Origin: Bacteroidales bacterium
GTDB taxonomy: Bacteria; Bacteroidota; Bacteroidia; Bacteroidales; JAHJDW01
Length of the DNA stretch: 64,000 nucleotides
Direction of reading: 5' to 3'
Assembly: GCA_029004185.1 (NCBI GenBank)
Contig: JAQUPB010000001.1
Coordinates: 1,322-65,321, forward strand
Below are positions 5,406 to 22,595 of this stretch, in pieces (the stretch's first letter is position 1; each line of letters opens with the position of its first letter). Under the pieces are notes generated by a model. That model ran no database searches, was not told where the DNA came from, and saw only the letters and a program-made list of their open reading frames with translations. The position numbers and the translations under genes were made by a program.

Positions 5406-7391
5406 TTAAATTTTGGTTTTTACTTTGTCCGTAAGCTCTTTTATATAACTGTCGGTTATCGGATATCCCAGTTCTTTAGCTCTCCTTGCATCTTCCAGAG
5501 CTTCTTTATATTTTCCGAGAATTTTATAAATAACAGAACGGTTATAAATTGCATTATAGTAATTTGGTTTTAGCTCAATTGCTTTGTTATTGTCATTCAA
5601 CGCTTCCTTATAATTTTTCAGGTTGAAATACGCAACTCCCCTGAAAAAATAAGTATTTGTATCATTTGGTAATTGCGAAATGCAATAACTGTAATCATCA
5701 ATTGCTTTTTTATATTCACCGAGCGAAAGATATGTAAATGCCCTGTTTTGGTACAATTTCACGGCATTAGGAATAAATTTAATTGCTATGTTATAATCTT
5801 CCAATGCTTTTTTGTATTCTTTCATCATCGAGTAGGTAATGGCTCTGTTGAGGTATGCATCGGAATTATTTTTGTCGAGTTGTATTGACCTTGAATAATC
5901 GGCAAGCGACTTATCCCATTTTGCCTGAAGTCCGAAAATATTTCCCCTGTTGCTGAAAACTTTTGCATCTTTTGATTTCATAGAGTCAAGGGCATTATAA
6001 TCAACAAGAGCTTCTGCATACATTCCTTTTTGTGCATAATAATTGCCTCTGTTTTTATGGGCGACTTCAATAAACCAGTATTTGTTAAGAACGTCTGTCC
6101 ACAGGGTATCTGTATTTTTCCAGATTTTTGCGCGCTGATTTGTGAGGTATGAAAAAATACAAGCCGAACCCAAAATCAAAATAATAAAAACATATTTTAA
6201 ATTGCGAAACAACGGAATGGGATTATTATGAAACCAGCTGTAGCCCATTCCAATCATAAAGAGCAATCCTATATATGGCAAATATGCATATCTGTCGGCT
6301 GTAATTGCAGCACCAACAGAAACAAACTGAAGCACGAGCGCAATTGTAATTAAATAAAATAAAAATCCGAAAGCAATAATTCTTGTACGCTTCAGCGATA
6401 AAAAAACAAGAACAATCAAAACAGGTAACGCTCCGAGAGAGATATTATAAATCAAGGGTAATCCTCCATTTACAATTGTAGGATAAGGATAAAAAGCGGA
6501 AAGGTTAACCGGAATAAAGAGTTTATATATGTATGCGAAAAATCCGTATGAGGCAAATTCAAATCTCTGCAATAAAGTGAAAACCCCGAACTTTGCAATT
6601 GCATCGGTTTTTTGTGCTTCTACCGCAATAAATCCCATTATTCCCGAAAAAAGAAGGAAAGGAATTTTTTCAAGAATCAGTTTTAATGTAAGTTTTCTCT
6701 GGTAATAATAATCGAGCAGTAACATAACAACAGGCAGTGTTACGGCAACGGCTTTTGCAAGCACCGATAAAGCGAAGAAAATAAATACAAGAATAAGTTT
6801 TAGTATTTTTCTTTCGTCGGATTTCAGATATTTTATGTAAGTAATTAATGCGAGAAGATAAAACATTGTATATAAAACATCTTTCCGTTCGGCAATCCAT
6901 GTAACCGATTCGACATGCATAGGGTGAATACCGAAAAACAACGACACAATAAAAGCGACTTCAATTTTTTTATTGCTTAACAAAAAGATGAACCAGAATA
7001 CAAGTAATGTATTTATCAAATGCAGAATTACATTTGTTGCGTGAAATACTTCGGGTTTGAAAACATAATCGCAAAGCTTATATTCCATTGCAAAGCTTAG
7101 CATTGTCAAAGGGTGGTAATTGCACGAAATGAAAGAAGTGAAGATGTTGTTGAAGTTCTTTTGCATGTTCAGGAAAATGGGATTCTCCAACAGGTAAGTA
7201 GGGTCATCCCAGTTTGTGAAATCATTTTTCAGCGAAGGGTAAAAAGAGAAAAAAGTTGCCAGAACAACAACAGCAAGCGGAAGAATGAATTTATTAAAAC
7301 CCGTTGCATTTCGTTTGGGTTTTATTTGCTGTTTGCTGGCTTTATTGTCTTTGAATTTTATATTTTTCTGAAACTTCTTCTTATTAGACAT
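5406..7391 (-). CDS. Polytopic membrane protein (GT-C/PMT-like N-terminal half) fused to C-terminal TPR repeats
   Basis: 661 aa. Many hydrophobic helices in the first ~430 aa, then about six 34-aa TPR-like units (for example YYAQKGMYAEALVDY and AIELKPNYYNAIYNR). Confidence 0.65.
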   Translation of the reverse strand: MSNKKKFQKNIKFKDNKASKQQIKPKRNATGFNKFILPLAVVVLATFFSFYPSLKNDFTNWDDPTYLLENPIFLNMQKNFNNIFTSFISCNYHPLTMLSFAMEYKLCDYVFKPEVFHATNVILHLINTLLVFWFIFLLSNKKIEVAFIVSLFFGIHPMHVESVTWIAERKDVLYTMFYLLALITYIKYLKSDERKILKLILVFIFFALSVLAKAVAVTLPVVMLLLDYYYQRKLTLKLILEKIPFLLFSGIMGFIAVEAQKTDAIAKFGVFTLLQRFEFASYGFFAYIYKLFIPVNLSAFYPYPTIVNGGLPLIYNISLGALPVLIVLVFLSLKRTRIIAFGFLFYLITIALVLQFVSVGAAITADRYAYLPYIGLLFMIGMGYSWFHNNPIPLFRNLKYVFIILILGSACIFSYLTNQRAKIWKNTDTLWTDVLNKYWFIEVAHKNRGNYYAQKGMYAEALVDYNALDSMKSKDAKVFSNRGNIFGLQAKWDKSLADYSRSIQLDKNNSDAYLNRAITYSMMKEYKKALEDYNIAIKFIPNAVKLYQNRAFTYLSLGEYKKAIDDYSYCISQLPNDTNTYFFRGVAYFNLKNYKEALNDNNKAIELKPNYYNAIYNRSVIYKILGKYKEALEDARRAKELGYPITDSYIKELTDKVKTKI

Positions 7392-7444
7392 CTTTTCAAA
7401 ATTATAAAAAAGTTTCTATAACAAATATTGTTTGTAAAAAATTT

Positions 7445-7497
7445 GCCACAGATTCACAGATTAAAATTACTCTTTTTGTAATCTGTGAATCTGTGGC
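7445..7497. repeat. CACAGATT-family palindromic hairpin (copy A)
   Basis: gccacagattcacagatt ... aatctgtgaatctgtggc forms a perfect 18 bp stem with a ~15 nt loop and T-runs on both sides. Near-identical to the copy at 58359-58412. Confidence 0.85.
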
Positions 7498-7586
7498 TTT
7501 TAATTTTCCCTTAATTAATGTTACTGGGAATATAAAAAACAATGCAATTTAATATATTTTTTCGTAAGTAATCAATGATAGAAAAA

Positions 7587-7712
7587 GTTTGTTGTTTGTA
7601 GTTTGTTGTTTGTAGTTGAATCGAGGTTATTTCCTTGTGTCTTATCTTTATTGTCATTTAAAATTAAGCAGTTATTTTTTTAACAACAAACTACAAACCA
7701 CGAACTACAAAC
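7587..7712. repeat. Long inverted repeat built from gtttgtag/gtttgttg words (about 70 nt loop)
   Basis: 7594-7610 (gtttgtagtttgttgtt) is perfectly complementary to 7682-7698 (aacaacaaactacaaac). The repeated words allow additional pairing registers. Lies just downstream of the stop at 7764 (-). Confidence 0.8.
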
Positions 7713-7763
7713 CTGTTTATAAAAAGGCAGGAAACAAACTTATTAAAAATATTTATCTATAAA

Positions 7764-8402
7764 TTACTTTTTCCTCACAATCATAAGTCCGTCGCGGAAA
7801 GGTAATAACAAATGTTCTACACTTGTATCATTTTTTACTTTATTGTTGAAATTAATAACACCGATTGTTTCGGTATCGTTGGGATTTGGCTCTTCAAGAA
7901 CTTTTCCGTCCCAGAGGGCATTGTCGGCAATAATGTATCCTCCCGGATTTAATTTGTCAATTACCATATCGAAATAAATGCAGTTATTTTCTTTGTCGGC
8001 ATCAATAAAAACCAGGTCGAACATTTCATTTATGGTAGGAATAACATCAGCGGCATTGCCGATAATATATTTTATTTTTTTTTCAAGATTTGCTTCTTTG
8101 AAATAAGGACGCACAAAGTCTTCGAGTTCTTTGTTTTTATCAATTGTATAAATAATTCCATCGTCAGTTAATCCCTGTGCAAGGCATATTGCCGAATATC
8201 CCGTGTATGTTCCTATTTCAAGAATGCGTTTTGGCTTCAGCATTTTGCTGAAAGTTTCGAGCAGTTTGCCCTGCAGATGCCCCGAAAGCATTCTTGCACG
8301 TAGGATTTTTGCATTAGTTTCCCTGTTGAGTTTTTTCAAAACATCTGTTTCGGGCGTGGTGTATGCTTCGGCGTATTCTTTTAGTTTTTCGGTGATTTCC
8401 AT
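7764..8402 (-). CDS. Class I SAM-dependent O-methyltransferase (caffeoyl-CoA O-methyltransferase-like)
   Basis: 212 aa. SAM-binding ILEIGTYTGYS, then YTIDKN and FDLVFIDADK motifs. Confidence 0.85.
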   Translation of the reverse strand: MEITEKLKEYAEAYTTPETDVLKKLNRETNAKILRARMLSGHLQGKLLETFSKMLKPKRILEIGTYTGYSAICLAQGLTDDGIIYTIDKNKELEDFVRPYFKEANLEKKIKYIIGNAADVIPTINEMFDLVFIDADKENNCIYFDMVIDKLNPGGYIIADNALWDGKVLEEPNPNDTETIGVINFNNKVKNDTSVEHLLLPFRDGLMIVRKK

Positions 8403-8814: not shown

Positions 8815-9231
8815 ATGATAAACAATAATTTTAAACATAGCGACATTACCGAAAAGATATTACGCGCATTCTTTAATGTTTATAACAGCTTAGGTTATGG
8901 ATTTCTTGAAAAGGTTTATGAAAATGCAATGTTGATCGAATTAATAAAATTAAATCTTAATGCAGTGAAGCAAAGTCCTGCAAAAATATATTATGATGAT
9001 GTTCTGGTTGGCGATTATTTTGCCGACATTGTTGTAGAAAATAAAGTTATTCTTGAACTAAAAGCCATTGAAAACCTTTGTCCTGAGCATGAAGTGCAGT
9101 TGGTAAATTACCTGAAAGCAACAGAAATTGAAGTTGGTTTATTGCTTAACTTCGGTAAAAAGCCGCAGTACAAAAGAAGAGTATTGACAAAAGAATATAG
9201 AAATAAAAAAGTAGACGCGGATTTAATATAA
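8815..9231 (+). CDS. GxxExxY protein (PD-(D/E)XK nuclease-like superfamily)
   Basis: 138 aa. Contains GYGFLEKVYENAM (GxxExxY) and DIVVENKVILELK (a D...ExK-like core). The last six codons lie in repeat F4. Confidence 0.8.
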   Translation: MINNNFKHSDITEKILRAFFNVYNSLGYGFLEKVYENAMLIELIKLNLNAVKQSPAKIYYDDVLVGDYFADIVVENKVILELKAIENLCPEHEVQLVNYLKATEIEVGLLLNFGKKPQYKRRVLTKEYRNKKVDADLI

Positions 9232-9615: not shown

Positions 9616-9825
9616 ATGAAAAAGTTAGAATCAATTAAAAATGCTAAATTTGAAGCATTAAACAAAAATCAAATGGGTAAATTAAATGGTGGTGGAAAAG
9701 CAGCCGGAGACATTAATTTCTCTGGTCCAGGTACAGTAACTATAGGTAGCAACACTTATAAATATTCTGGTGACCAGTCAACACCTGGCGGAGGTACACA
9801 GTATTCAGATGCAAAACTTGTCTAA
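9616..9825 (+). CDS. RiPP precursor peptide with double-glycine-type leader
   Basis: 69 aa. The leader MKKLESIKNAKFEALNKNQMGKLNGG ends in GG(G). The Cys-free core is GKAAGDINFSGPGTVTIGSNTYKYSGDQSTPGGGTQYSDAKLV. First gene of an operon that encodes a C39-peptidase ABC exporter. Confidence 0.7.
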   Translation: MKKLESIKNAKFEALNKNQMGKLNGGGKAAGDINFSGPGTVTIGSNTYKYSGDQSTPGGGTQYSDAKLV

Positions 9826-9837
9826 TAATTGTATTAT

Positions 9838-9870
9838 AAAAGGCTGTCTTTATTTATAAGACAGCCTTTT
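9838..9870 (+). terminator. Intrinsic terminator or attenuator immediately after the precursor gene
   Basis: Perfect 13 bp stem (aaaaggctgtctt / aagacagcctttt) with the 7 nt loop tatttat. Starts 13 nt after the stop codon. Confidence 0.65.
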
Positions 9871-9906
9871 ACTTTATGTAAAGTATAACTATTAAAATAA
9901 AAATAA

Positions 9907-10956
9907 ATGAAAAGATTACTATTTGCATATATAATAGTTAATTTATTTGTAATCGCAATATTTTCGCAAAATTCAGATTACACAAAGGTTTATTACCCAT
10001 TTACAAACAAAGCTGAATTGAATATAATTGAAAATAATTACAAAAAAGCTTTAAGGAAATATAAAAAAGCATTTGATAATGCTCCACATGCCTTTGCCAG
10101 AGATTTGTATAATGCAACGCTTTGTGCAATAAGAGTAAATAAACTCGATTTTGCCTATAAATGCATGGATAGTTTAATTAGTAAAGGCTTAAATATTGAT
10201 TTTTTTGAAATTAATAATGAATTTGATACATTAAAGAAAGATTATAGATGGGAAAAATTTAAGTCGGATTATCCTATATATAAAAAAATAGCTGATAAAA
10301 GAATTAACAAACAATTATCAATAATGTTCAGGAAAATGGAAGATGACGACCAAAAATTCAGATATGATTACGAAACATTTGGTGATACAATAAAAAAAAT
10401 TGATTCAATGAATATGAAAATATTTTTAGATATAATTGATAAATACGATTTTCCATGTGAGGAAATTATAGGAATAAATTCATCACTGGGAAAATATAAT
10501 GAAAGTTTTTATATTGTTTTACATCATAATTGTCAGAAATTTTCATTACCAGGAAATGAAAAATTATTTAATCTTAAAAATATACTGATAAAAGCAATTA
10601 AAGATGGAAAGTATGATAAATATACTGCGGCATATTTGCTCATTTTACAAAATGACTCAACAATTAAAATAGGAGATGTAGGGATAACTCAAATTATTAA
10701 TAAAGCGATACCTGATTCTGAAAATAAATATTACATACAAAAATATTTATCCAAAAAACAAAAAAAAGAATATGATGTTTATCGAGCAGGTATAGGTTTA
10801 GAAACCTTAAATGATTTCTATAAAAAATTAATATTTTTTCATATAAATAAAAATCATAGTCCTTTTAAATTTTATGTTAAATACGACAAGTGGGTATTTA
10901 ATAATGAATTATACAGTAAATTCATAAAATCATTTGTAGAATTAAAATTACAATAA
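9907..10956 (+). CDS. Hypothetical secreted or periplasmic protein (signal peptide; helical-repeat-like N-terminal part)
   Basis: 349 aa. N-terminal hydrophobic signal sequence MKRLLFAYIIVNLFVIAIFSQ. No family recognised with confidence. Its stop is 3 nt before the ATP-grasp start. Confidence 0.6.
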   Translation: MKRLLFAYIIVNLFVIAIFSQNSDYTKVYYPFTNKAELNIIENNYKKALRKYKKAFDNAPHAFARDLYNATLCAIRVNKLDFAYKCMDSLISKGLNIDFFEINNEFDTLKKDYRWEKFKSDYPIYKKIADKRINKQLSIMFRKMEDDDQKFRYDYETFGDTIKKIDSMNMKIFLDIIDKYDFPCEEIIGINSSLGKYNESFYIVLHHNCQKFSLPGNEKLFNLKNILIKAIKDGKYDKYTAAYLLILQNDSTIKIGDVGITQIINKAIPDSENKYYIQKYLSKKQKKEYDVYRAGIGLETLNDFYKKLIFFHINKNHSPFKFYVKYDKWVFNNELYSKFIKSFVELKLQ

Positions 10957-10959
10957 TAA

Positions 10960-11946
10960 ATGCTTTTAATATTTAGCGAAGAAACAGATAGAACAACAGA
11001 TTATGTTTGCTCATGGTTAAATTATTTGAAAACATCTTATGTTAGGATTAATAATAAAATAAATGCTAATATAATTGATGAAATTGAAATAAGTAATAAT
11101 ACTATAAATATAAATCTCAGCCGAAAACAAAATAAATACAAATTTGAAGATATTGATATTGTCTGGTTCAGGCGAGGATATTTAACTTTTTCTGTTGAAA
11201 ATTTGAAAGAACTAAATATTTCCGAAAATGCAAGAGAAGAAATAAATAGACATATAATTGAACAAAATACAACACTTGGGATTTTTTTTTATGAAAATAC
11301 AAAATATAAAAAAACCATAAATGACCCAAGAATATATAATGCCAATAAATTAATAACATTACAAACTGCAATTGATATCGGACTAAAAGTTCCCGCAACA
11401 ATAATTACAAAAAATAAAAACAGCATCCTTAACTTCAAGAGGAAATACAAAAATATTATAACAAAGCATATTCAGGATATTATTAATATGATACTTGAAG
11501 ATGGTAAAAACATTTTTGTGTTAACCAATAAAGTTTATAAAAAAGAAATAACAGAAGAAACTTATTATTATTCATTATTTCAAGAAGAAATTAAAAAGAA
11601 ATATGAATTAAGAATATTTTATTTTCTTGGTAAGTTTTACAGTGCGGCAATATTTTCGCAATTAAGTGAAGTTTCAAAAATTGATTTCAGAGATAATAAT
11701 CTAAATAGAGAAAAACCAAGTAGAATAGCACCGTTTAACCTACCTAAAGAAATAAAAATAAAACTTGATAATTTGATGAAAAAATCAAGTTTAGAAAGCG
11801 GCTCAATAGATATGATTGTTACGCCGGAAAATGAATATGTTTTTTTGGAAGTTAATCCTGTTGGACAACTTGATTTTGTTAGCAAACCATGCAATTATTA
11901 TATTGAAAAAGACATTGCAAAATATTTTAGAGATGGAAAAATCTGA
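10960..11946 (+). CDS. ATP-grasp peptide maturase (RiPP ligase, grasp-with-SPASM type)
   Basis: 328 aa. ELRIFYF and the C-terminal GSIDMIV...YVFLEVNPVGQ match the ATP-grasp Mg/ATP-binding region. The N-terminus MLLIFSEETDRTTDYVCSWL resembles what I recall for this maturase family. Confidence 0.8.
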   Translation: MLLIFSEETDRTTDYVCSWLNYLKTSYVRINNKINANIIDEIEISNNTININLSRKQNKYKFEDIDIVWFRRGYLTFSVENLKELNISENAREEINRHIIEQNTTLGIFFYENTKYKKTINDPRIYNANKLITLQTAIDIGLKVPATIITKNKNSILNFKRKYKNIITKHIQDIINMILEDGKNIFVLTNKVYKKEITEETYYYSLFQEEIKKKYELRIFYFLGKFYSAAIFSQLSEVSKIDFRDNNLNREKPSRIAPFNLPKEIKIKLDNLMKKSSLESGSIDMIVTPENEYVFLEVNPVGQLDFVSKPCNYYIEKDIAKYFRDGKI

Positions 11947-12127
11947 AAAAAAATATTTAATACCAATTGATAAAAGAAAATACTTTCCTTTTAATTATCA
12001 ATATCTGGTAAAACCAAATGATTCATCAATTGATAAGATGTCAGTATATAAAGATTCTAAAATAGAAAAAATACAAAACGATAATGCAGAGGTAATACCA
12101 TTTTACAAATCAATATCAAGATTTTAA
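11933..12127 (+). CDS. Small 64 aa ORF translationally coupled between the ATP-grasp and SPASM genes (accessory protein or second substrate?)
   Basis: The ATG at 11933 lies inside the last codons of the ATP-grasp gene. Its TAA (12125-12127) abuts the next ATG (12128). No GG motif and no Cys. Confidence 0.45.
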   Translation: MEKSEKKYLIPIDKRKYFPFNYQYLVKPNDSSIDKMSVYKDSKIEKIQNDNAEVIPFYKSISRF

Positions 12128-13255
12128 ATGAATACAGATAAAAAATATTTTCGTTTATTTGCCACATGTATTCCCGTGAAAGGATACGAACGTTCTGCTA
12201 TTTGCGATATTCATAGATGTAATGTTGAGTTTATTCCCAATTCACTTTATGAAATTATTACAAATAATGAAAACAAAACTTATAGCGAATTGATTGAAAT
12301 ATTTGGAGCAGAACAAAAACAAGTGATTGATGAATATTTTGAATTTTTGCTCGAAAAAGAATTCGGATATTTCTTTAATAAAGACGAATTGGAGCTTTTT
12401 CCTAAACTTAATCTGCAATGGGATTTTTATTCTGATGTGAGCAATGCAATAATTGATTTAAAAGAATATTCGAATTATGATATAAAAGAAGCAATTAAAC
12501 AACTTGATGATATTGATTGTTTCCATTTGCAAATAAGATTTTTTTTAAAAACACAAAAAGAAAAAATAATTGAATTACTTGAATTGATTAATGAAACGTC
12601 AATACGTTCAGTTCAAGTCATGTTGTCTTTCAATACTTTAAATAATACAGATGAATACATACAGCTTTGTAAAGATTACTTAAAAATAAGTAAAATCGAA
12701 TGTTATAATAGCAGGAAGAGTGAAATAATAGATGTGTTCGGAAACCTTTCGCAAGTTTTATTAAACGGAAAAAAAATAAAAGATGAAACTACTTGTGGTA
12801 TGGTAGATGTTGGGTATTTTTCACCAAACACACCACATTTTACCGAATCCCAACATCACAATACTTGCCTGAACCGAAAAATTAGTATTGATGCAAATGG
12901 TAAAATTAAAAACTGTCCTTCGATGCAAAAGAGTTTTGGAAATATTAAAAATACAACATTAAAAGAGGCATTGGGAAAACCTGGTTTTAAAGATTTGTGG
13001 AGCATAAGAAAAGATGATATTGATGTTTGCAAAGATTGTGAATTTCGTTATATATGCACTGACTGCAGAGCATACTTAAAAGACCCAAGCAATATTTATT
13101 CACAACCGGCAAAATGTCTGTATAATCCTTATATTGCCAAATGGGAAGGTGAAGAAGGTTATATAAAAGTTGAGGACTGGCGGAAACAAAACCCTGATTG
13201 GGAAAAGGGATTAAAAAGGGAACCATTAGTAAAAAAAATTCAATTAGTGCAATGA
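12128..13255 (+). CDS. SPASM-domain peptide maturase lacking the canonical radical-SAM CX3CX2C motif
   Basis: 375 aa. The C-terminal Cys pattern is CX10GX4C (CLNRKISIDANGKIKNC), then CKDCEFRYICTDC (CX2CX5CX2C), then a distal Cys (AKCLYNPY). The N-terminal Cys are C14, C26 and C31 (CX11CX4C), so there is no CX3CX2C. Confidence 0.8.
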   Translation: MNTDKKYFRLFATCIPVKGYERSAICDIHRCNVEFIPNSLYEIITNNENKTYSELIEIFGAEQKQVIDEYFEFLLEKEFGYFFNKDELELFPKLNLQWDFYSDVSNAIIDLKEYSNYDIKEAIKQLDDIDCFHLQIRFFLKTQKEKIIELLELINETSIRSVQVMLSFNTLNNTDEYIQLCKDYLKISKIECYNSRKSEIIDVFGNLSQVLLNGKKIKDETTCGMVDVGYFSPNTPHFTESQHHNTCLNRKISIDANGKIKNCPSMQKSFGNIKNTTLKEALGKPGFKDLWSIRKDDIDVCKDCEFRYICTDCRAYLKDPSNIYSQPAKCLYNPYIAKWEGEEGYIKVEDWRKQNPDWEKGLKREPLVKKIQLVQ

Positions 13256-15441
13256 AAAATTTCCCCTTCTATACCCAACTCGATTCAATGGACTGCGGTC
13301 CCTCATGTTTACGCATGATTGCGAAGCATTACGGAAAGACATATACATTGCAGAATTTGCGTGATAAAAGTTTTATTACACGTGAAGGAGTGTCGTTACT
13401 TGGTATTAGCGATGCAGCTGAAGCAATTGGCTTTCGCACAATGGGAGTGAAAATAAGTTTTGAAAAACTTGCAAAAGAAGCTCCACTGCCTTGCATTGTA
13501 CATTGGAATCAGAATCATTTTGTGGTGGTATATAAAATACATAAAAACAATGTTTATGTAGCCGATCCCGGACATGGGTTGGTAAAATATACAACCGAAG
13601 AATTTAAGAAATGCTGGCTCAGCACAAAAGCCGAAGGCGAAGAAAAGGGAATTGCATTGCTTTTAGAGCCGACACCCGACTTTTATAAAATCGAAGATGA
13701 GAAAAAAAACAAATCAAGTTTTGGATATTTATTTTCTTATTTAACACCTTATAAAAAATTTATAGTACAGTTAATACTTGGGTTGCTGCTTGGCAGCATG
13801 CTGCAGCTTGTATTTCCTTTCCTTACCCAATCGGTAGTTGATGTAGGTATAAGTAACCAGAACATAAATTTTATTTATCTGGTTCTTATTGCACAATTAA
13901 TGTTGTTCTTCAGTCGGGCTACAGTTGATTTTATCCGCGGCTGGATATTACTGCACCTTGGCACGCGAATAAACATCTCGCTTATTTCCGACTTCCTGAT
14001 GAAATTAATGAAACTGCCAATCGGCTTTTTCGATACAAAAATGATTGGCGATTTAATGCAGCGCATTTCAGATAATCACCGAATAGAAACATTTCTTACT
14101 TCATCATCACTGAGTATTTTATTTTCAATGATGAATTTAATCATATTCAGCATCGTACTTGCAATTTATAGTTTGAAGATATTTATAATATTTCTTGCAG
14201 GTAGTATTCTATACACGCTTTGGATATGGATTTTCCTGAAAAAACGCCGCGAACTTGATTTTAAACGTTTTGCTCAAATGTCGGACAATCAAAGCAACTT
14301 ATTCCAATTGATTACCGGCATGCAGGAAATAAAACTTAATAATTGCGAAAAGCAAAAGCGATGGGAATGGGAACGGATACAATCAAAATTATTCAAAGTA
14401 AGCATAAAGAGTTTGGCATTATCGCAATATCAGCAAGCCGGTTCGGTAGTAATTAATGAAACAAAAAATATAATCATTTCCATAATAGCGGCAAAAGCGG
14501 TGATAGACGGCAATATTACACTCGGTATGATGCTTGCCGTTCAGTATATAATCGGGCAGTTGAACAGCCCTATTGAACAGATGATAAATTTTATACAGGC
14601 AGCACAGGATGCAAAAATAAGCTTGGAACGATTAGGCGAAATTCACAACAAGAAAGATGAGGAAAATCCCGATGATGAGAAAATCACAATATTCCCCGAA
14701 AATAAAAGTATTTCAATAAATGAACTTTCATTTCAATATGAAGGACCACATTCCGAATTTGTTTTGCAGGATTTAAGTTTGAATATTCCCGAAAGTAAAA
14801 TTACAGCAATAGTAGGAACAAGCGGAAGCGGAAAAACAACAATGGTTAAATTAATGCTTGGATTTTACCCGCCGACAAAAGGAGAAATAAAAATAGGAGA
14901 TGTGGGATTGCCGAATTTCAGCCAAAGAATGTGGCGTGCAAAATGCGGAGCGGTAATGCAGGACGGATTTATTTTTTCAGATACAATTGCAAAAAATATT
15001 GCAGTGAGTGACGAAACAGTTAATAAAGAAAAACTATTACATGCCGTAAAAGTGGCGAACATACAGGAGTTCATCGAATCGTTGCCTCTTGGTTACAACT
15101 CAAAAATCGGACAGGAAGGACACGGAATAAGTCAGGGACAAAAACAAAGAATGTTGATAGCACGGGCAGTTTACAAAAATCCCGAATATATTTTCTTTGA
15201 TGAAGCCACAAATGCATTAGATGCGAATAATGAGCTTGTGATAATGAAAAATCTTGAAGAGTTCTTTAAAGGAAAGACGGTTATCATTGTAGCACACAGA
15301 TTAAGCACAGTGAAAAATGCAGATAAAATAGTTGTTTTAGAAAAGGGAAAAATTGTAGAAACAGCAAATCATGAAGAACTGACAAATTTGAGAGGAGCAT
15401 ATTATAATTTGGTAAAAAACCAGTTGGAACTGGGGAATTAG
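13252..15441 (+). CDS. Peptidase C39 domain-containing ABC transporter (bacteriocin/RiPP processing exporter)
   Basis: The N-terminus QLDSMDCGPSCLRMIAKHYG carries the C39 catalytic Cys. Six-TM region, Walker A GTSGSGKTT, signature ISQGQKQR, Walker B IFFDEATNALD. Start chosen at the ATG at 13252, which overlaps the upstream TGA (ATGA). Confidence 0.9.
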   Translation: MKNFPFYTQLDSMDCGPSCLRMIAKHYGKTYTLQNLRDKSFITREGVSLLGISDAAEAIGFRTMGVKISFEKLAKEAPLPCIVHWNQNHFVVVYKIHKNNVYVADPGHGLVKYTTEEFKKCWLSTKAEGEEKGIALLLEPTPDFYKIEDEKKNKSSFGYLFSYLTPYKKFIVQLILGLLLGSMLQLVFPFLTQSVVDVGISNQNINFIYLVLIAQLMLFFSRATVDFIRGWILLHLGTRINISLISDFLMKLMKLPIGFFDTKMIGDLMQRISDNHRIETFLTSSSLSILFSMMNLIIFSIVLAIYSLKIFIIFLAGSILYTLWIWIFLKKRRELDFKRFAQMSDNQSNLFQLITGMQEIKLNNCEKQKRWEWERIQSKLFKVSIKSLALSQYQQAGSVVINETKNIIISIIAAKAVIDGNITLGMMLAVQYIIGQLNSPIEQMINFIQAAQDAKISLERLGEIHNKKDEENPDDEKITIFPENKSISINELSFQYEGPHSEFVLQDLSLNIPESKITAIVGTSGSGKTTMVKLMLGFYPPTKGEIKIGDVGLPNFSQRMWRAKCGAVMQDGFIFSDTIAKNIAVSDETVNKEKLLHAVKVANIQEFIESLPLGYNSKIGQEGHGISQGQKQRMLIARAVYKNPEYIFFDEATNALDANNELVIMKNLEEFFKGKTVIIVAHRLSTVKNADKIVVLEKGKIVETANHEELTNLRGAYYNLVKNQLELGN

Positions 15442-15523
15442 ACGCTGATTTAATATGAAAAAATGAAAAAACACAGATAAAAAATCATATCCGTCAGCTG
15501 ACGGACAGCGTTAATCTGCGTCT
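15440..15523 (-). repeat. CGCAGAT-family element, copy F5 (inverted orientation) between the ABC and HlyD genes
   Basis: agacgctgatttaatatgaaaa...aacacagat...cgttaatctgcgtct aligns to the reverse complement of F1. It carries an internal perfect 14 nt palindrome, ccgtcagctgacgg (15491-15504). Confidence 0.75.
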
Positions 15524-15531
15524 TAAAAATA

Positions 15532-16839
15532 ATGGAAAAAGAAGAAATAAATAAAATAGAAATCCGCAGCGAAGAAGTGCAGGAAATTCTTGGCAGACCA
15601 CCACGTTGGGTTATACGTTGGGGAATTACTGTCATATTTATTGTTATTGCTGTTATTTTTATTGGAAGTTATTTTTTCAAATATCCCGATGTAATTAACT
15701 CTACAATAATTGTAAATACAGAGAACTTACCTGCAAATGTTGTAGCAAAAACAAATGGAAAAATCGTAGCTCTTTTTATTAAGGACAAACAAAAAGTTAA
15801 AAAAGATAACATACTTGCAATAATTGAAAACCCTGCAAACTTTGATGATGTAGTAAGGTTAAAAATAAAATTAGATTCCGTAAATATCAAAAGTATTCTG
15901 TTAAAAGATTCAATGAAAACCATACAATTCAATGAAAGTTATATTTTAGGCGATTTGCAAACTTCGTATATCGGATTTCTGAAAGGGCTGAAAGATTATC
16001 AGATATTTATTGAATCAGATTTTCAGCACAAAAAAATAAATTCACTCAAAAATCAAATAAGCAAATACAATACTTTATTATCCCGGCTTTCGAAACAATC
16101 AAATATAATGGACAAGCAACTTGATATTGCAAAGCAGCAACATTCAAGAGATTCGGCATTATATAAAAACAGCACTATTTCAAAAATTGATTTTGAAAAA
16201 TCGGAAAATGCCTTATTGCAAAGTAAATACTCTTATGAAAGTGCAAAAAGCAGTTTGGATAATACAAGAATTACGATTTCTCAGATAGAACAAAATATTT
16301 TAGAACTCCAGCAACAATACGATGAACAAAAACAACAACTCGAACTAGCTTTAAACAACAATTATGAAGCATTGAAAAATCAAATTAAAACGTGGGAACA
16401 AACATATTTATTAAAAAGCCCTATTGATGGAAAAGTTACTTTTACTCAATACTGGAGCGTGAATCAAAATGTAAAAGCAGGAGATAATGTTATTACCATT
16501 GTTCCCGAAAAAGAAGCAAAAATTATAGGAAAAATTAAACTACCGATACAAGGTTCAGGAAAAGTAAAAGTTGGCCAGAAAGTAAACATTAAGTTTGCAA
16601 ATTACCCATACATGGAATATGGGATGGTAAAAGGAATAATAAAGTCAATATCACTTGTTCCTATGGATGCAAATTATACAGTAGAAGTTGAATTACCCGA
16701 AGGATTAAAAACAAACTACAACAAAACTCTTATCTTCAGCCAGGAAATGCAGGGAAGTGCAGAAATTATTACTGATGATATACGTTTAATAGAAAGATTT
16801 TTAAATCCTTTGAAAGCTGTTTGGAAAAAGAATATCTGA
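15532..16839 (+). CDS. HlyD-family secretion adaptor protein
   Basis: 435 aa. N-terminal TM anchor after RSEEVQEILGRPPRWVIRWG, a long coiled-coil-like Q/E/L-rich middle, and a beta-barrel-like C-terminus. Confidence 0.85.
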   Translation: MEKEEINKIEIRSEEVQEILGRPPRWVIRWGITVIFIVIAVIFIGSYFFKYPDVINSTIIVNTENLPANVVAKTNGKIVALFIKDKQKVKKDNILAIIENPANFDDVVRLKIKLDSVNIKSILLKDSMKTIQFNESYILGDLQTSYIGFLKGLKDYQIFIESDFQHKKINSLKNQISKYNTLLSRLSKQSNIMDKQLDIAKQQHSRDSALYKNSTISKIDFEKSENALLQSKYSYESAKSSLDNTRITISQIEQNILELQQQYDEQKQQLELALNNNYEALKNQIKTWEQTYLLKSPIDGKVTFTQYWSVNQNVKAGDNVITIVPEKEAKIIGKIKLPIQGSGKVKVGQKVNIKFANYPYMEYGMVKGIIKSISLVPMDANYTVEVELPEGLKTNYNKTLIFSQEMQGSAEIITDDIRLIERFLNPLKAVWKKNI

Positions 16840-16916
16840 AAATATTCTTTTTTGCATTGTTTAAAAAAGAAAAAAAGTAAAAGAATCGAAATGAAAATTA
16901 TTGATAAATTAAAAAA

Positions 16917-19358
16917 ATGAACAAATTTTTTTACATATTATTTTTTCTTGCCCTTGCATTTGCTTCCTCCTCACAGGAATTGCAAATACAAGGTAAATTA
17001 ATTGACAGTACCACAAAAGCGTCATTACAGTTTTCAAATATTATAATTAAAAATCAAAATGATTCTGTTATAAAAGGAGTTCTTACAAACGAAAAGGGAG
17101 AATTCAAAATAAATTTGGTAATTGGTAATGGGTATAAGCTGGTTGCAAACAGCATGGGGTACAAAGAAAAAACCATTTTACTGAATATAGATATAAAAAC
17201 CAAAACATATAGAATCGGAGAAATAACCCTTGCGCCGAAAGTATTTCAGTTGAAAGAAACGAATGTAGCTTCTAACGTACCATACATGGAAAAAAAGTTT
17301 GACCGCAAGGTTTTTAACATCAGCGAAGCAAAAACTGCAGCGGCACGTTCAATATTTGATTTACTACGGACTTTACCAGGTGTTGTCGTTAATGAAGAAG
17401 GAAGTGTGCGATACAAAGGAGCAGAAGCAACAATATATGTTGATGACCAGCCGTCAAATTTTATGTATCCGAAACTTGAAATGATTCCTGTTGCAAAAGT
17501 TGACAAAATAGAATTGATTGATGCTTCAATGCAATCAGGAGGGGAAGGTAAAGGAGGAATAATCAATATTAAAATGAAATCTGTTAATACAGATGGATTA
17601 AGCGGAATTGCTTCATCTGATATTAATACCATTGAATTTAAAAATATTGATAAATCGGAGAATTTTGTTAATGCAAACTATAAAAAAAATAAAGTAACAA
17701 TATTAAATAATTTTTCGATTGATGAAAATTTATATAATAGTAGTAGTCAATCTGAAAGTAAAATAAGCGCTTTTCAAACACCAACCGAACAAAGTTCAAA
17801 TTATTCTAGTAATTCCGATAATAAATCATATTATGATTATTTCGGTGCTATTTATAATCCTACAAAAAAGACAAGATTTTATTTTGGTGGCGGAACATAT
17901 AATTCCTCTTTCATATCAGGTTCTTCAGGCGATTTTACTGAACTTGAAAGTTCCATCAAAAGTATTCTGAATAGTAATAATAATTGCCATAGGTATGATT
18001 CAAAATATGATTATAAAGGAATAAATTTTTCTTTCCGACATAAATTTGATACAAATGATACTTATATAAGGATGTTTGCAGGGTTTCAATTTATTGACGA
18101 TTTTTCTAATTCTTCCGCAACTTATAATTATGAAATAATAAATTCTGTTTGTTATGATAGTATATTTAAATATGATAGAAAAGATTTATCATATGGAAAC
18201 AGAGGTTTATACAGTAATATTTTTTATAATCATACTATTTCAAAAAATGCAAGATGGAATATTCGATATTATAATTACTTCAAATTAAAAGAAAACAATG
18301 ACAGCAAATACTACATCTTTGATGATTTGTACATGCCTGAAACTTATTCCAATAATTCCACATCACAATACCATAACATGTCAGCCCGTATTGGCTCAAA
18401 CTGGAATAAATGGAAATTTGATGGCGGAGTAAACGCACAATATACTAAAACAGAAATAGCTTTTTTAAGACATACTGAAGAATTAAAAGATACAGCATTC
18501 TCTGTAGTTAAAGATTATTTAAAAATATTGCCTTCAGTTACAATATCATTTGCAATAAATGATACGGAAGAAATAAAACTTACATTATCGCAGACAACAC
18601 AAACACCATATTATCTCCAACTTTCTGACTACATAAGCAAAGAAAATCCATATTATTGGTGGTCGGGAAATTCCAAATTAAAACCATCGGATTTTTATTC
18701 TGCATATCTTGGGTATTCATATACAAAAGAAAAATGGAATGCATCGGCGGAAGGATTTTTCAACTATACAAACAATGAAATTACTTATGTTTCTTATCCT
18801 TTGACTTCTATGCTTTATCTTTCCAAACCTATGAATGGTGCAAAGAAAAGTGAAACAGGTATTGATGTTTCAACATGGGTAATGGTTACTGATAAATTAA
18901 ACTTTTCGCTATCATCGAGTATTTCTTATGTTTACTATAATTCAAAAGCATTACAAGAAAGCGCAAGTAAATATAACCTTCCTACGGAGAATTTAATTAA
19001 CCGGCAATTTGGTTACAATATAAAATATAACATGGAATATAAAATAAAAAAATTCTATGCTATGTTTTATGTTAATTATTTCAGCAGGGAATTAAAATAC
19101 AATGGATATAATTATGGTTATATAAACTCATCATTTAATGTGAGCAGGAAATTCTTTAAGGATAAATTAAGAATCACTTTAAGTGCAAATAACCTGTTTG
19201 ATGACATGGTAAAACGCGGCTCTGTTGAAAATTATTTTGGTATTTACCAGGTTGAAAGAAGACATTCTTCAAATTATAAACGGATGTATGGAATTTCCAT
19301 TCAATACACTTTCCGCCAGGGCGATAGAGGCACAAAGGATATGAAAGTCGGGGGATAA
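16917..19358 (+). CDS. Outer-membrane beta-barrel protein with an N-terminal carboxypeptidase-regulatory-like domain and a TonB-receptor-like plug
   Basis: 813 aa. Signal peptide, then IQGKLIDSTT...GEFKINL (CarboxypepD_reg-like) and DLLRTLPGVVVNEEGSVRYKG (plug-like). The remainder is rich in aromatic, Asn and Ser residues and ends YGISIQYTF. Confidence 0.75.
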   Translation: MNKFFYILFFLALAFASSSQELQIQGKLIDSTTKASLQFSNIIIKNQNDSVIKGVLTNEKGEFKINLVIGNGYKLVANSMGYKEKTILLNIDIKTKTYRIGEITLAPKVFQLKETNVASNVPYMEKKFDRKVFNISEAKTAAARSIFDLLRTLPGVVVNEEGSVRYKGAEATIYVDDQPSNFMYPKLEMIPVAKVDKIELIDASMQSGGEGKGGIINIKMKSVNTDGLSGIASSDINTIEFKNIDKSENFVNANYKKNKVTILNNFSIDENLYNSSSQSESKISAFQTPTEQSSNYSSNSDNKSYYDYFGAIYNPTKKTRFYFGGGTYNSSFISGSSGDFTELESSIKSILNSNNNCHRYDSKYDYKGINFSFRHKFDTNDTYIRMFAGFQFIDDFSNSSATYNYEIINSVCYDSIFKYDRKDLSYGNRGLYSNIFYNHTISKNARWNIRYYNYFKLKENNDSKYYIFDDLYMPETYSNNSTSQYHNMSARIGSNWNKWKFDGGVNAQYTKTEIAFLRHTEELKDTAFSVVKDYLKILPSVTISFAINDTEEIKLTLSQTTQTPYYLQLSDYISKENPYYWWSGNSKLKPSDFYSAYLGYSYTKEKWNASAEGFFNYTNNEITYVSYPLTSMLYLSKPMNGAKKSETGIDVSTWVMVTDKLNFSLSSSISYVYYNSKALQESASKYNLPTENLINRQFGYNIKYNMEYKIKKFYAMFYVNYFSRELKYNGYNYGYINSSFNVSRKFFKDKLRITLSANNLFDDMVKRGSVENYFGIYQVERRHSSNYKRMYGISIQYTFRQGDRGTKDMKVGG

Positions 19359-20234: not shown

Positions 20235-21284
20235 TTACAATATCAACATTGCATCACCGTAAGTGAAAAATCTGTATTTTTCTTTAATAGCAACTTCATA
20301 AGCGTGCATTAAAAAGTCGAATTCTGCAAAAGCTGCTGCCATCATCATCAAAGTGGATTGCGGCAAATGGAAATTGGTAACCATAGCATCTGCAATGCTG
20401 AATTCATGAGGAGGAAAAATGAATTTATTTGTCCATCCGTTGAACTGATTTAAAGTGCCGTTTGTTGAAACCGATGATTCTACAGCTTTCATTGATGTTG
20501 TGCCTACTGCGCATACCATCTTTTTACTTTGTTTTGCTTTGTTAACAATTTCGGCTGCTTTTGCATCTATAATAACCTGTTCGGAGTCCATTTTATGCTT
20601 GGAAAGGTCTTCAACATCCACGTTTCTGAAGTTTCCCAATCCTGCGTGCAGGGTTATCTCGGCAAAATTAACGCCTTTAAGCTGTAATTTTTTAATTAGA
20701 TTTTTGCTGAAATGGAAACCGGCAGTAGGAGCAACAACGGCGCCTTCGTGCTTTGCATAAACCGTCTGATATCTTTCCTTATCTTCAGGTTCAACTTTTC
20801 TTTTAATATGTTTTGGAAGCGGTGTTTGTCCGAGTTCTTCAATTGTATTTTTAAAATCTTCCTGTGAGCCATCGAATAGAAACCTGAGAGTTCTTCCTCT
20901 TGAAGTTGTATTGTCAATTACTTCTGCTACCAGCGAGTCATCTTCGCCGAAGTATAATTTGTTGCCTATTCTTATTTTTCTTGCAGGGTCAACCAAAACA
21001 TCCCATAATCGTGATTCGCGGTTTAATTCTCTGAGAAGGAAAACTTCGATTTTTGCGCCTGTTTTTTCTTTTGTTCCGAAAAGCCGCGCAGGGAAAACTT
21101 TGGTATTATTCAGTATTATTACATCGCCATCATGAAAATAATCAATTATTTTGTGAAAAACCTTATGTTCGATTTTTTTTGTATCCCTGTGTATGATCAT
21201 CAACTTTGACTCTTCACGGTTTTTAACAGGGTGTAATGCAATGAGTTCCGACGGCAAATGATATCTAAAATCCGATAATTTCAT
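20235..21284 (-). CDS. queA: S-adenosylmethionine:tRNA ribosyltransferase-isomerase
   Basis: 349 aa. [22 protein letters not shown]...[29 protein letters not shown]. Confidence 0.9.
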
Positions 21285-21368: not shown

Positions 21369-22595
21369 CTATAAAAATCTCTGAAACACGCAACTGTCGC
21401 CAAAACTGAGAAAGCGAAAATTGTTTTTTAGGGCATAATTATAGGCATTTTTCCATTTTTCGCCGATAAATGCAGCAACCAATAACAATAAAGTACTTTG
21501 CGGCATGTGAAAATTTGTAATCAGATAATTTGCAGTTTTGAACTTATAACCGGGAATGATAATTAAACTTGTCTGTGCCGATAGTAAAGTTTTGTTCTTT
21601 TTTTTCAAATAATCCAGCAAATAATTTAACGATTCTTGAAATGAAATATCAATATTGAAGTTATTCTGGTATGCTTCCCATTGGTCAAGAAATAGAATTT
21701 CTTTTTTTTGGAAATCTTTGTCAACTTTAAGTTTAACTCCCATTAAATACAAACTTTCCAGAGTGCGTAAAGTTGTCGTTCCTACCGAAATAATATTTTC
21801 ATGTTTGTTATATATCAGGTTTTTCAGGGTTTCTGAGCTTACGGAAAAAAATTCTGTATGCATTTTATGATTTTCAATACTGTCTTTTACGGGTAGAAAA
21901 GTTCCTGCACCTACATGTAAAGTGACGTATTCAAAATCTGTTTTTTTCTTTTTCAATTCTTCAAGAACATTTTCGGTAAAGTGTAATCCAGCTGTTGGAG
22001 CGGCAACTGAACCTTTTTCTCTTGCATATATTGTCTGATATTTATTCTTATCGCTGTAATCTGATAAGCGTTTGATGTAAGGAGGAAGCGGAGTTTGTCC
22101 GAACATATCAATCACTTCGGCAAATGAAAAATTTTCGGGTTGCCAGCAGAATTCAACAACGAAAAAATCTTTTTCACAGCATAGTTGGTTTACCGATAAG
22201 CAGACTTCTTTGTTTATATATATTATTTTATTGAAAAGCAATCCTGTTTTCCATTTACTTGCATTTCCAATAAAGCATTTCCATTTACAGCTTCCCTTTT
22301 TTTCAAAAGCAATGTTATACTCATCCAGCGGCTCAAGGCAGAATATTTCGATTTTTGCACCGCTTGGTTTTTTGAAAAATATTCTTGCCTGAATAACTTT
22401 CGTATCATTGAAAATCATTAATGAATCTCCGGGGAGATGGCTTGAAAGATTTTTAAATATATCATCACAGATTTTACCTTCTTTAAAAACAAGTAATTTT
22501 GAATTATCCCTTTCTTTCAGCGGAAACTGGGCAATTCTTTCGGGAGGAAGAGGGTATGAAAAATCTTTGATATTGAGGTTCTCGGTAAGCAACAT
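21369..22595 (-). CDS. Divergent QueA paralogue (S-adenosylmethionine:tRNA ribosyltransferase-isomerase family)
   Basis: 408 aa. FSYPLPPERIAQFP, GQTPLPPYIKR, YQTIYA...APTAGLHFT, TNFHMPQSTLLLL, FGDSCVF. Relative to the adjacent queA it carries a ~45 aa insertion before the TNFH motif. Confidence 0.75.
   Translation of the reverse strand: MLLTENLNIKDFSYPLPPERIAQFPLKERDNSKLLVFKEGKICDDIFKNLSSHLPGDSLMIFNDTKVIQARIFFKKPSGAKIEIFCLEPLDEYNIAFEKKGSCKWKCFIGNASKWKTGLLFNKIIYINKEVCLSVNQLCCEKDFFVVEFCWQPENFSFAEVIDMFGQTPLPPYIKRLSDYSDKNKYQTIYAREKGSVAAPTAGLHFTENVLEELKKKKTDFEYVTLHVGAGTFLPVKDSIENHKMHTEFFSVSSETLKNLIYNKHENIISVGTTTLRTLESLYLMGVKLKVDKDFQKKEILFLDQWEAYQNNFNIDISFQESLNYLLDYLKKKNKTLLSAQTSLIIIPGYKFKTANYLITNFHMPQSTLLLLVAAFIGEKWKNAYNYALKNNFRFLSFGDSCVFQRFL

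Follow-up and report, generated by a model that had tools for sequence, protein, structure and literature searches.

The 64,000-nucleotide stretch of a Bacteroidales genome analyzed here (contig JAQUPB010000001.1; as a whole, the window) contains an open reading frame (ORF) at positions 9616 to 9825 that we read, with a probability of about 80%, as the genuine precursor of the ATP-grasp maturase GwsG and the SPASM-domain protein GwsS in a grasp-with-SPASM graspetide cluster of a low-GC Bacteroidota genome. We base this reading on equivalog-level matches of both maturases and the exporter genes beside them, on 74 matches to a profile of related precursors, on the conservation of the GG site, S36, S51, and D53, on the enrichment of an aromatic-Ser-x-Asp motif, on the presence of GwsG and GwsS in loci with the same leader, and on the literature. 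The window peptide adds one hypervariable singleton to a graspetide group that is cataloged and chemically uncharacterized.

The following features were assigned to the precursor gene and its 3′ flank:

9616 to 9825, + strand: precursor ORF, 69 residues, translated as MKKLESIKNAKFEALNKNQMGKLNGG (leader) / GKAAGDINFSGPGTVTIGSNTYKYSGDQSTPGGGTQYSDAKLV (core)
9616 to 9693, + strand: leader peptide, residues 1 to 26, with the G25-G26 cleavage site at its end (leader-only model and family conservation)
9694 to 9825, + strand: core peptide, residues 27 to 69, plus stop codon; 43 residues, Cys-free, three Asp
9709 to 9711, + strand: D32, a lineage-specific Asp within a window-specific insertion (alignment)
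9721 to 9732, + strand: S36-G-P-G39, a conserved hydroxyl followed by a Gly motif, with S36 as candidate ester nucleophile (alignment)
9763 to 9774, + strand: Y50-S51-G52-D53, the aromatic-Ser-x-Asp motif that defines the family, with D53 as best candidate acyl donor (conservation and motif enrichment)
9808 to 9810, + strand: D65, a possible second acyl donor of ambiguous homology (MAFFT against an Asp-anchored view)
9837 to 9871, + strand: terminator-like hairpin directly 3′ of the precursor gene, with a 14-bp stem (1 found versus 0.3 expected in shuffles)

The original prediction had described a GG leader of 26 residues ahead of a core of 43, and a script count confirmed every number in that description: D32, D53, and D65; K28, K49, and K67; five Ser, five Thr, three Tyr, and nine Gly; and no Cys or Glu, with KxxGD starting at residues 28 and 49, YSGD at 50, and YSD at 63. 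Asp residues are the sole side-chain acyl donors, so the proposed maximum of three macrocycles is a fair upper bound. At least two KxxGD motifs had a P of 4e-4 and at least two YS(G)D motifs a P of 2e-4 in 200,000 core shuffles, values that overstate the significance, the motifs having been picked post hoc.

Judged by its sequence, the ORF is a real gene and not a chance ORF, because its leader matches a leader-only hidden Markov model (HMM) built from the homologs (E = 1.7e-12), its nearest relative P0013 matches it pairwise, the hairpin lies at its 3′ side, and maturase genes follow downstream. The HMM match was the sole one within the 64-kb window, and no second peptide with the same leader was found there by this model. 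Matched pairwise, P0013 (42 bits, E = 4e-12 as a single comparison) gives cleaner support than does the match of the whole precursor to the family profile A3 (73 bits; E = 2e-15 in a search of 1.8 billion proteins), which is partly circular, A3 being made of 12 sequences with the window peptide among them. The hairpin is likely an attenuator that would raise the ratio of precursor to enzyme transcripts. Promoter-like matches upstream of the precursor were not commoner than expected by chance.

Searched alone against 5.8 billion protein clusters, the precursor matched only itself, and a metagenome scan with the precursor alignment gave 349 leader-pattern matches, none of them confirmed by tblastn, for which the peptide is too short. 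A search with the ATP-grasp protein of the window led to 13 genomic loci with identities of up to 46%, the two closest of which (L001 and L002) have upstream peptides with the same leader. A profile of these same-leader peptides yielded 17 further peptides, and 1.84 billion cluster representatives, scanned in full with HMMER, gave the 74 family-profile matches at E ≤ 1e-3. This MKLESLNN-leader/aromatic-Ser-x-Asp precursor family, which is defined in the present analysis, has the leader consensus MKLES[LI][KN]NxK[FY]xL...MGxLVGG, and the window peptide has all four of its anchors, i.e., the leader, GG, a hydroxyl about 7 to 10 residues past GG, and [YWF]-S-x-D. P0013 is 44% identical to the window precursor, with its core segment GSVTIGDNTFSYSADST matching GTVTIGSNTYKYSGDQST of the window, and its downstream gene is syntenic with the window gene for a 349-residue protein. 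The same-leader loci with enough sequence (L001, L002, L016, and L018 to L021) all carry GwsG, plus GwsS where the contig reaches.

The precursor is the first gene of a 9.7-kb co-directional operon (9616 to 19358), in which it is followed, in this order, by seven genes:

9907 to 10956, + strand: secreted protein of 349 residues, N-terminal signal peptide, at the "cluster 23"/DUF6624-like position (same-position homologs)
10960 to 11946, + strand: GwsG, ATP-grasp peptide maturase (TIGR04192, 254 bits, above the equivalog cutoff of 230)
11933 to 12127, + strand: conserved small protein of 64 residues directly upstream of gwsS, in the "LPL family" position (called as a gene in the Logan assembly)
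12128 to 13255, + strand: GwsS, SPASM-domain maturase (TIGR04193, 342 bits, above the equivalog cutoff of 175)
13198 to 15441, + strand: ATP-binding cassette (ABC) exporter with a C39 peptidase domain, of the PCAT type (Peptidase_C39, 1e-38; ABC_membrane; ABC_tran)
15532 to 16839, + strand: HlyD-family periplasmic adaptor (HlyD_3, 8e-11; TIGR01843, 1.8e-35)
16917 to 19358, + strand: outer-membrane beta-barrel, TonB-dependent-receptor-like (OMP_b-brl_3, 3.7e-33; CarbopepD_reg_2; Plug)

The sequence relatives of GwsG in the PDB are AMdnB (7m4s), CdnC (7mgv), and MdnC (5ig9), together with 5ig8, at E values from 1e-19 to 1e-26. The gwsS gene lies 181 nt downstream of gwsG, and the gene for the 64-residue protein sits between them, overlapping the 3′ end of gwsG by 14 nt.

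Conservation was counted in an L-INS-i (MAFFT) alignment that comprised 78 members of the family. G25 and G26 are kept in 77 of them each, in agreement with the earlier claim of a GG-leader ribosomally synthesized and posttranslationally modified peptide (RiPP), whose neighbors also include genes for an ATP-grasp macrocyclase and for a C39 exporter. The core is hypervariable except at the S36 hydroxyl (Thr in 51 and Ser in 20, i.e., 71/78), at G39 (60/78), and at the aromatic-Ser-x-Asp motif of Y50-S51-G52-D53. Within this motif, the column of D53 is Asp in all 78 members, that of S51 holds 64 Ser and 6 Thr (70/78 by alignment columns, 68/78 when anchored on the Asp), and that of Y50 is aromatic in 51, with 49 to 51 members having an aromatic residue at −3 of the Asp across both views. 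The Asp-anchored view was added, together with a shuffle control, because the MAFFT alignments of the cores were unstable. In this alignment-free control, [YWF][ST]xD occurred in 48 of 77 cores versus 7.7 expected, with a maximum of 19 in 2,000 shuffles. The profile with which the family was collected itself contained the aromatic-Ser-x-Asp motif; the ascertainment is not wholly circular, because two members (P0076 and P0079) match mainly over the leader, so that the leader alone passes the threshold. A first alignment of five sequences had equated YKYSGD of the window with the C-terminal YSFSGD of the family; it was replaced once 78 sequences and the bridging P0013 placed the YSGD at the central SAD motif.

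On the model of the original prediction, with KxxGD as a functional repeat, the ATP-grasp would make up to three small rings, Lys-Asp isopeptides or Ser/Thr-Asp links, in the KxxGD/YS(G)D units, which can be spelled out as K28 to D32, K49 to D53, and a ring onto D65. Both motifs are really present and unlikely in core shuffles, and ATP-grasp maturases can form lactams, as in microviridin and corallotide (PMC13097080). The family, however, does not keep the residues that such rings would need. K28, K49, and K67 are kept in 9, 12, and 7 of the 78 members, respectively, and the column of D32 is a gap in 68, Asp being found in the window peptide only. KxxGD occurs in 3 of the 77 other cores, 7 of which have no Lys at all, and the conserved positions of nucleophile type are the hydroxyls at S36 and S51. 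Ser/Thr-to-Asp esters anchored on D53 are thus better supported, as putative links, than Lys-Asp lactams, because D53, S36, and S51 are conserved, D32 lies in an insertion, and neither the Lys residues nor KxxGD is conserved. Repeated small Lys-Asp rings, including lactams formed in KxxGD by the window peptide alone, are without comparative support, and we regard this alternative as quite improbable. Of the motifs in the original prediction, Y-S-G-D53 alone is conserved in relatives. The comparison with homologous precursors, which had been named as the check, accordingly gave a divided result, in that comparable peptides exist and keep GG and D53, D65 is arguable, and D32 and all three Lys are not conserved.

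Several observations weigh against the precursor reading or against parts of it. The core alignments shift with sampling (A2 has D53 invariant, A3 does not), and any low-scoring member can supply some Asp for a chance alignment. The homology of D65 is arguable when the two views of the sequences are compared: MAFFT aligns it to the C-terminal Asp of 63 of the 78 members, a doubtful placement, and in the Asp-anchored view 42/78 members have the second Asp of the family at precisely +9, as part of Y[TA][GN]xD, versus a Y-S-D that follows a PGGG stretch and spans +10 to +12 in the window. The curated leader model TIGR04149 (GG_sam_targ_CFB) gives the precursor 18.4 bits (E = 0.0015, leader region only), under its cutoff of 25. 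The window core lacks the C-terminal FSGxDD-type module of the family, so that an atypical or decaying substrate is possible. Ester and amide linkages and the ring partners are all putative in this group. Finally, the assignment of a RiPP recognition element (RRE) to the N terminus of GwsS would follow from predicted topology and fold matches with a low TM-score (0.37), with no PqqD match.

The atypical core also bears on the alternative of a class-II-like GG-leader bacteriocin that is exported with essentially no modification, or of a decaying precursor, with the maturases acting elsewhere, e.g., on the 64-residue protein. The core is short and poor in acidic residues (43 residues versus a family median of 59, and 3 acidic residues versus a median of 8), no close homolog turned up among the 5.8 billion clusters, and the 64-residue protein is better conserved than the precursor cores. 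Nevertheless, all family anchors of the core, i.e., GG, S36, G39, and YSxD, are kept; the precursor is the only GG-leader peptide of the window with a leader-HMM match; a GG motif is absent from the 64-residue protein; and the system typically has hypervariable singleton cores (PMC8939145). We therefore consider an unmodified or decaying peptide very unlikely.

Judging from its homologs, the SPASM partner cannot be a canonical radical S-adenosylmethionine (SAM) enzyme. The CxxxCxxC radical SAM motif was found in none of 92 aligned GwsS homologs (first 220 residues), and no Pfam Radical_SAM or PqqD match was found among them. In the SPASM region, C223, C247, C263, C301, C304, C310, C313, and C330 are invariant or nearly so. 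Outside it, C14 and C131 are nearly invariant (at least 90% of the 92 homologs), which is too few for a canonical radical SAM cluster. An AlphaFold2 model of GwsS (predicted local distance difference test [pLDDT] score of 93.7) consists of an N-terminal beta-strand and three-helix unit (residues 7 to 76), a short beta/alpha domain (about 106 to 212), and the SPASM region. A sequence search of the PDB with GwsS gave no match, and Foldseek matched the model to SuiB (5v1q, E = 8e-6) and CteB (5why and 5wgg), followed by EpeE and generic TIM barrels, over an E range of 8e-6 to 5e-5 with TM-scores of 0.35 to 0.37. SuiB and CteB are radical SAM/SPASM maturases with an N-terminal RRE, and GwsS may thus be a descendant of their architecture that has lost the SAM cluster, as far as fold matches with a TM-score of about 0.37 suggest. 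The absence of Cys from the core had been put forward as excluding the thioether chemistry of sactipeptides and ranthipeptides. This is chemically right but adds little, since GwsS has no radical SAM motif and 13 of the 78 family cores are Cys-free.

These features leave room for the SPASM protein to make the main modification, i.e., a redox crosslink by GwsS on the aromatic-Ser-x-Asp motif, for instance a Tyr-centered C-C or C-O bond, with GwsG in a minor or different role. The aromatic residue at −3 in most members, the invariance of all eight SPASM cysteines, and the resemblance of GwsS to SuiB, a Lys-Trp crosslinking enzyme, are in line with such a role. On the other hand, hydrogen abstraction would have no obvious source in a protein family without a radical SAM motif or a Radical_SAM match, and GwsG is an intact, equivalog-level ATP-grasp maturase. 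We consider this alternative unlikely. It is possible, if doubtful, that GwsS, having no SAM cluster yet all SPASM cysteines, serves as an obligatory leader-presenting partner of the ATP-grasp or as a SAM-independent iron-sulfur (Fe-S) redox enzyme that acts on the aromatic-Ser-x-Asp motif. If it were the latter, the group 14 graspetides, including the Cys-free window peptide, would carry an undescribed type of crosslink.

Returning to the precursor reading, we propose the following course of maturation. The leader would be bound in the cytoplasm, likely by the RRE-like N-terminal domain of GwsS and/or by the 64-residue protein, because the leaders of this group lack the helix motif that is bound by microviridin-type ATP-grasps. 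GwsG would then activate Asp carboxylates by phosphorylation with ATP and close omega-ester rings with upstream Ser/Thr hydroxyls, with D53 as the obligatory donor, D65 as a likely second one, and S36 and S51 as the conserved hydroxyls; D32 and the Lys residues would be optional, lineage-specific extras. As to the rings themselves, S36 to D53 and S51, T56, or T61 to D65 is a tentative guess held with low confidence. GwsS would contribute either a SAM-independent redox modification via its SPASM Fe-S clusters or a noncatalytic partner or scaffold function. The C39/ABC exporter would cleave after G26 and export the core through HlyD and the outer-membrane barrel, and the secreted 349-residue protein might act after export, outside the cytoplasm, in tailoring or self-protection.

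Among the transport genes, the true start of the C39 exporter is probably the ATG at 13252. The exporter carries the motif DCGPSCL, the Cys of which is, in our own reading, its putative catalytic residue. The outer-membrane barrel is likely the outer-membrane part of the export route, and its family is listed as associated with ATP-grasp loci (PMC8939145, Table 1). The 64-residue protein is 42 to 45% identical to the same-position genes of L020 and L021, with which it shares the motifs FPFxYxxL, IQNxN, and a C-terminal FYKxISRF, and it gave no Pfam match.

The 349-residue protein is 31% identical over its full length to the gene product beside P0013, the closest precursor homolog, and it also matches the same-position genes of L019 and L020; every homolog examined has a signal peptide. 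The window copy has no Pfam match, DUF6624 included, and its single-sequence AlphaFold2 model was unusable (pLDDT, 38.8). The same-position homolog of L020 matches DUF6624 weakly (E = 1.7e-4, 21.6 bits, under the gathering score of 27), and a significant DUF6624 match (6.4e-10) belongs to a different gene, just upstream of the one for the ATP-grasp in L018, that was not compared with the window protein. Behind the precursor, the most closely related loci have a gene pair for two proteins with signal peptides, an approximately 340-residue cluster-23/DUF6624-like protein and an approximately 280-residue FGE-sulfatase (PF03781):

L002: about 7150 to 7980
L016: 9319 to 17614
L018: 9312 to 11130
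L019: 533 to 2351
L020: 2921 to 4808
L021: 405 to 2304

L016 has four such pairs in tandem, and the window and L001 have the approximately 340-residue gene only. A tie between the short window core and the missing FGE-sulfatase gene was rejected, since L001 also lacks the gene and yet has a full-length core. Some related loci also contain unrelated Cys-rich GG-leader peptides (L019, 5195 to 5706; L020, 8120 to 8368). Those of L019 adjoin a genuine Radical_SAM gene and an S41 peptidase gene, and L019 thus appears to hold a second RiPP pathway beside its grasp-with-SPASM genes. No Radical_SAM gene was listed near the Cys-rich peptides of L020.

The cluster is flanked by housekeeping genes, with IspD and two QueA-like genes downstream and PD-(D/E)XK and Methyltransf_3 genes upstream. 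The two QueA-like genes form a tandem paralog pair just outside the cluster (20235 to 21284 and 21369 to 22595, − strand), and both match the Queuosine_synth (QueA) Pfam model (1.5e-131 and 2.1e-98). The Methyltransf_3 O-methyltransferase gene lies 1.2 kb upstream on the opposite strand (7764 to 8402, − strand). Its product scores 19 bits against TIGR04188 (PIMT-type), for which the cutoff is 380, short of a graspimiditide assignment; because this similarity is only weak, the cluster offers no evidence of putative aspartimide chemistry of the graspimiditide type. A GxxExxY/PD-(D/E)XK gene (8815 to 9231, + strand) stands immediately upstream of the window cluster and a 23S_rRNA_IVP-family gene (L021, 7031 to 7366) immediately downstream of the L021 cluster, and these small border genes may mark insertion sites.

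The system at issue is large, with more than 4,800 GwsS homologs at E ≤ 1e-20, and it occurs in Bacteroidota only, gut and oral species among them. We found in the literature neither a chemically characterized or solved product of the grasp-with-SPASM group nor a known role for its SPASM protein. The present analysis narrows the candidate residues to S36, S51, D53, and D65 instead of the Lys residues or D32, and it indicates that Cys is dispensable in a grasp-with-SPASM substrate. With three possible acyl donors in a 43-residue core, the window peptide offers an uncomplicated substrate on which the chemistry could be worked out. The central question, i.e., what a SPASM protein without a SAM cluster does, is system-wide rather than tied to the motifs of this peptide.

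Among known systems, the closest is the grasp-with-SPASM system itself (TIGR04192/TIGR04193), with which the window shares both maturases above the curated cutoffs, an MKKL-type GG leader encoded upstream, and Bacteroidota relatives. Makarova et al. (2022; PMC8939145) described the same architecture as ATP-grasp "branch 5." Its 190 Bacteroidetes-specific loci encode a SPASM enzyme of TIGR04193 and, in the gene immediately before it, a small protein of the "LPL family"; the further components are C39-ABC, HlyD, an outer-membrane barrel, and a "cluster 23" protein, in many cases with a signal peptide. The window has this accessory set, with a cluster-23-like secreted protein and a small protein before the SPASM gene. 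The branch 5 precursors were described as hypervariable peptides whose MKKL leader is without the Phh(x)h motif that serves elsewhere, and which carry GG as well as a conserved pair of Thr/Ser and Asp/Glu that are "most likely linked"; hypervariable cores with a conserved Thr/Ser and Asp are likewise found in the window family. Carter et al. (2026; PMC13097080), who characterized other groups, reported that a SPASM protein is always present alongside graspetide group 14, and this RODEO group corresponds to grasp-with-SPASM by the descriptions in the papers alone. A preprint (10.64898/2026.08.04.741601; 2026) uses the names gwsG and gwsS and describes a type-I-like secretion set. Compared with other members, the window core is a singleton (its nearest relative is 44% identical) and is shorter, more acid-poor, and, like 13 of the 78, Cys-free; an FGE-sulfatase gene, present in the closest loci, is missing from its locus.

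The microviridin-type systems (MdnA with MdnB/MdnC, and CdnC for chryseoviridin) share with the window a homologous ATP-grasp macrocyclase and a leader-bearing ribosomal precursor, for which Asp/Glu side-chain donors are expected. However, the window ATP-grasp scores far below the MvdC and MvdD cutoffs (150 versus 425 and 142 versus 475 bits), which places it outside microviridin group 1. Microviridins have a PFFARFL-type leader helix and a TxKxPSD core, both of which the window precursor lacks, and unlike their clusters, the window adds a SPASM partner and has an export set of type-I-like kind. SuiB (streptide) and CteB (sactipeptide) share a three-part layout with GwsS: a beta3-alpha3 domain at the N terminus, a barrel-like beta/alpha domain in the middle, and at the C terminus a SPASM domain with twin clusters. 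GwsS differs from them in having neither CxxxCxxC nor a Radical_SAM signal and in its shorter central domain (about 100 to 215), and the window core has neither Cys nor Trp. With no Cys in the core and no CxxxCxxC maturase, the cluster falls outside the sactipeptides and ranthipeptides. The partner-dependent graspetide rosaritide (PMC13097080) likewise has a strictly co-occurring non-ATP-grasp protein beside its synthetase that is possibly needed for activity. That partner is PPIase-like and belongs to a different graspetide group, and GwsG might depend in a similar manner on GwsS or on the 64-residue protein.

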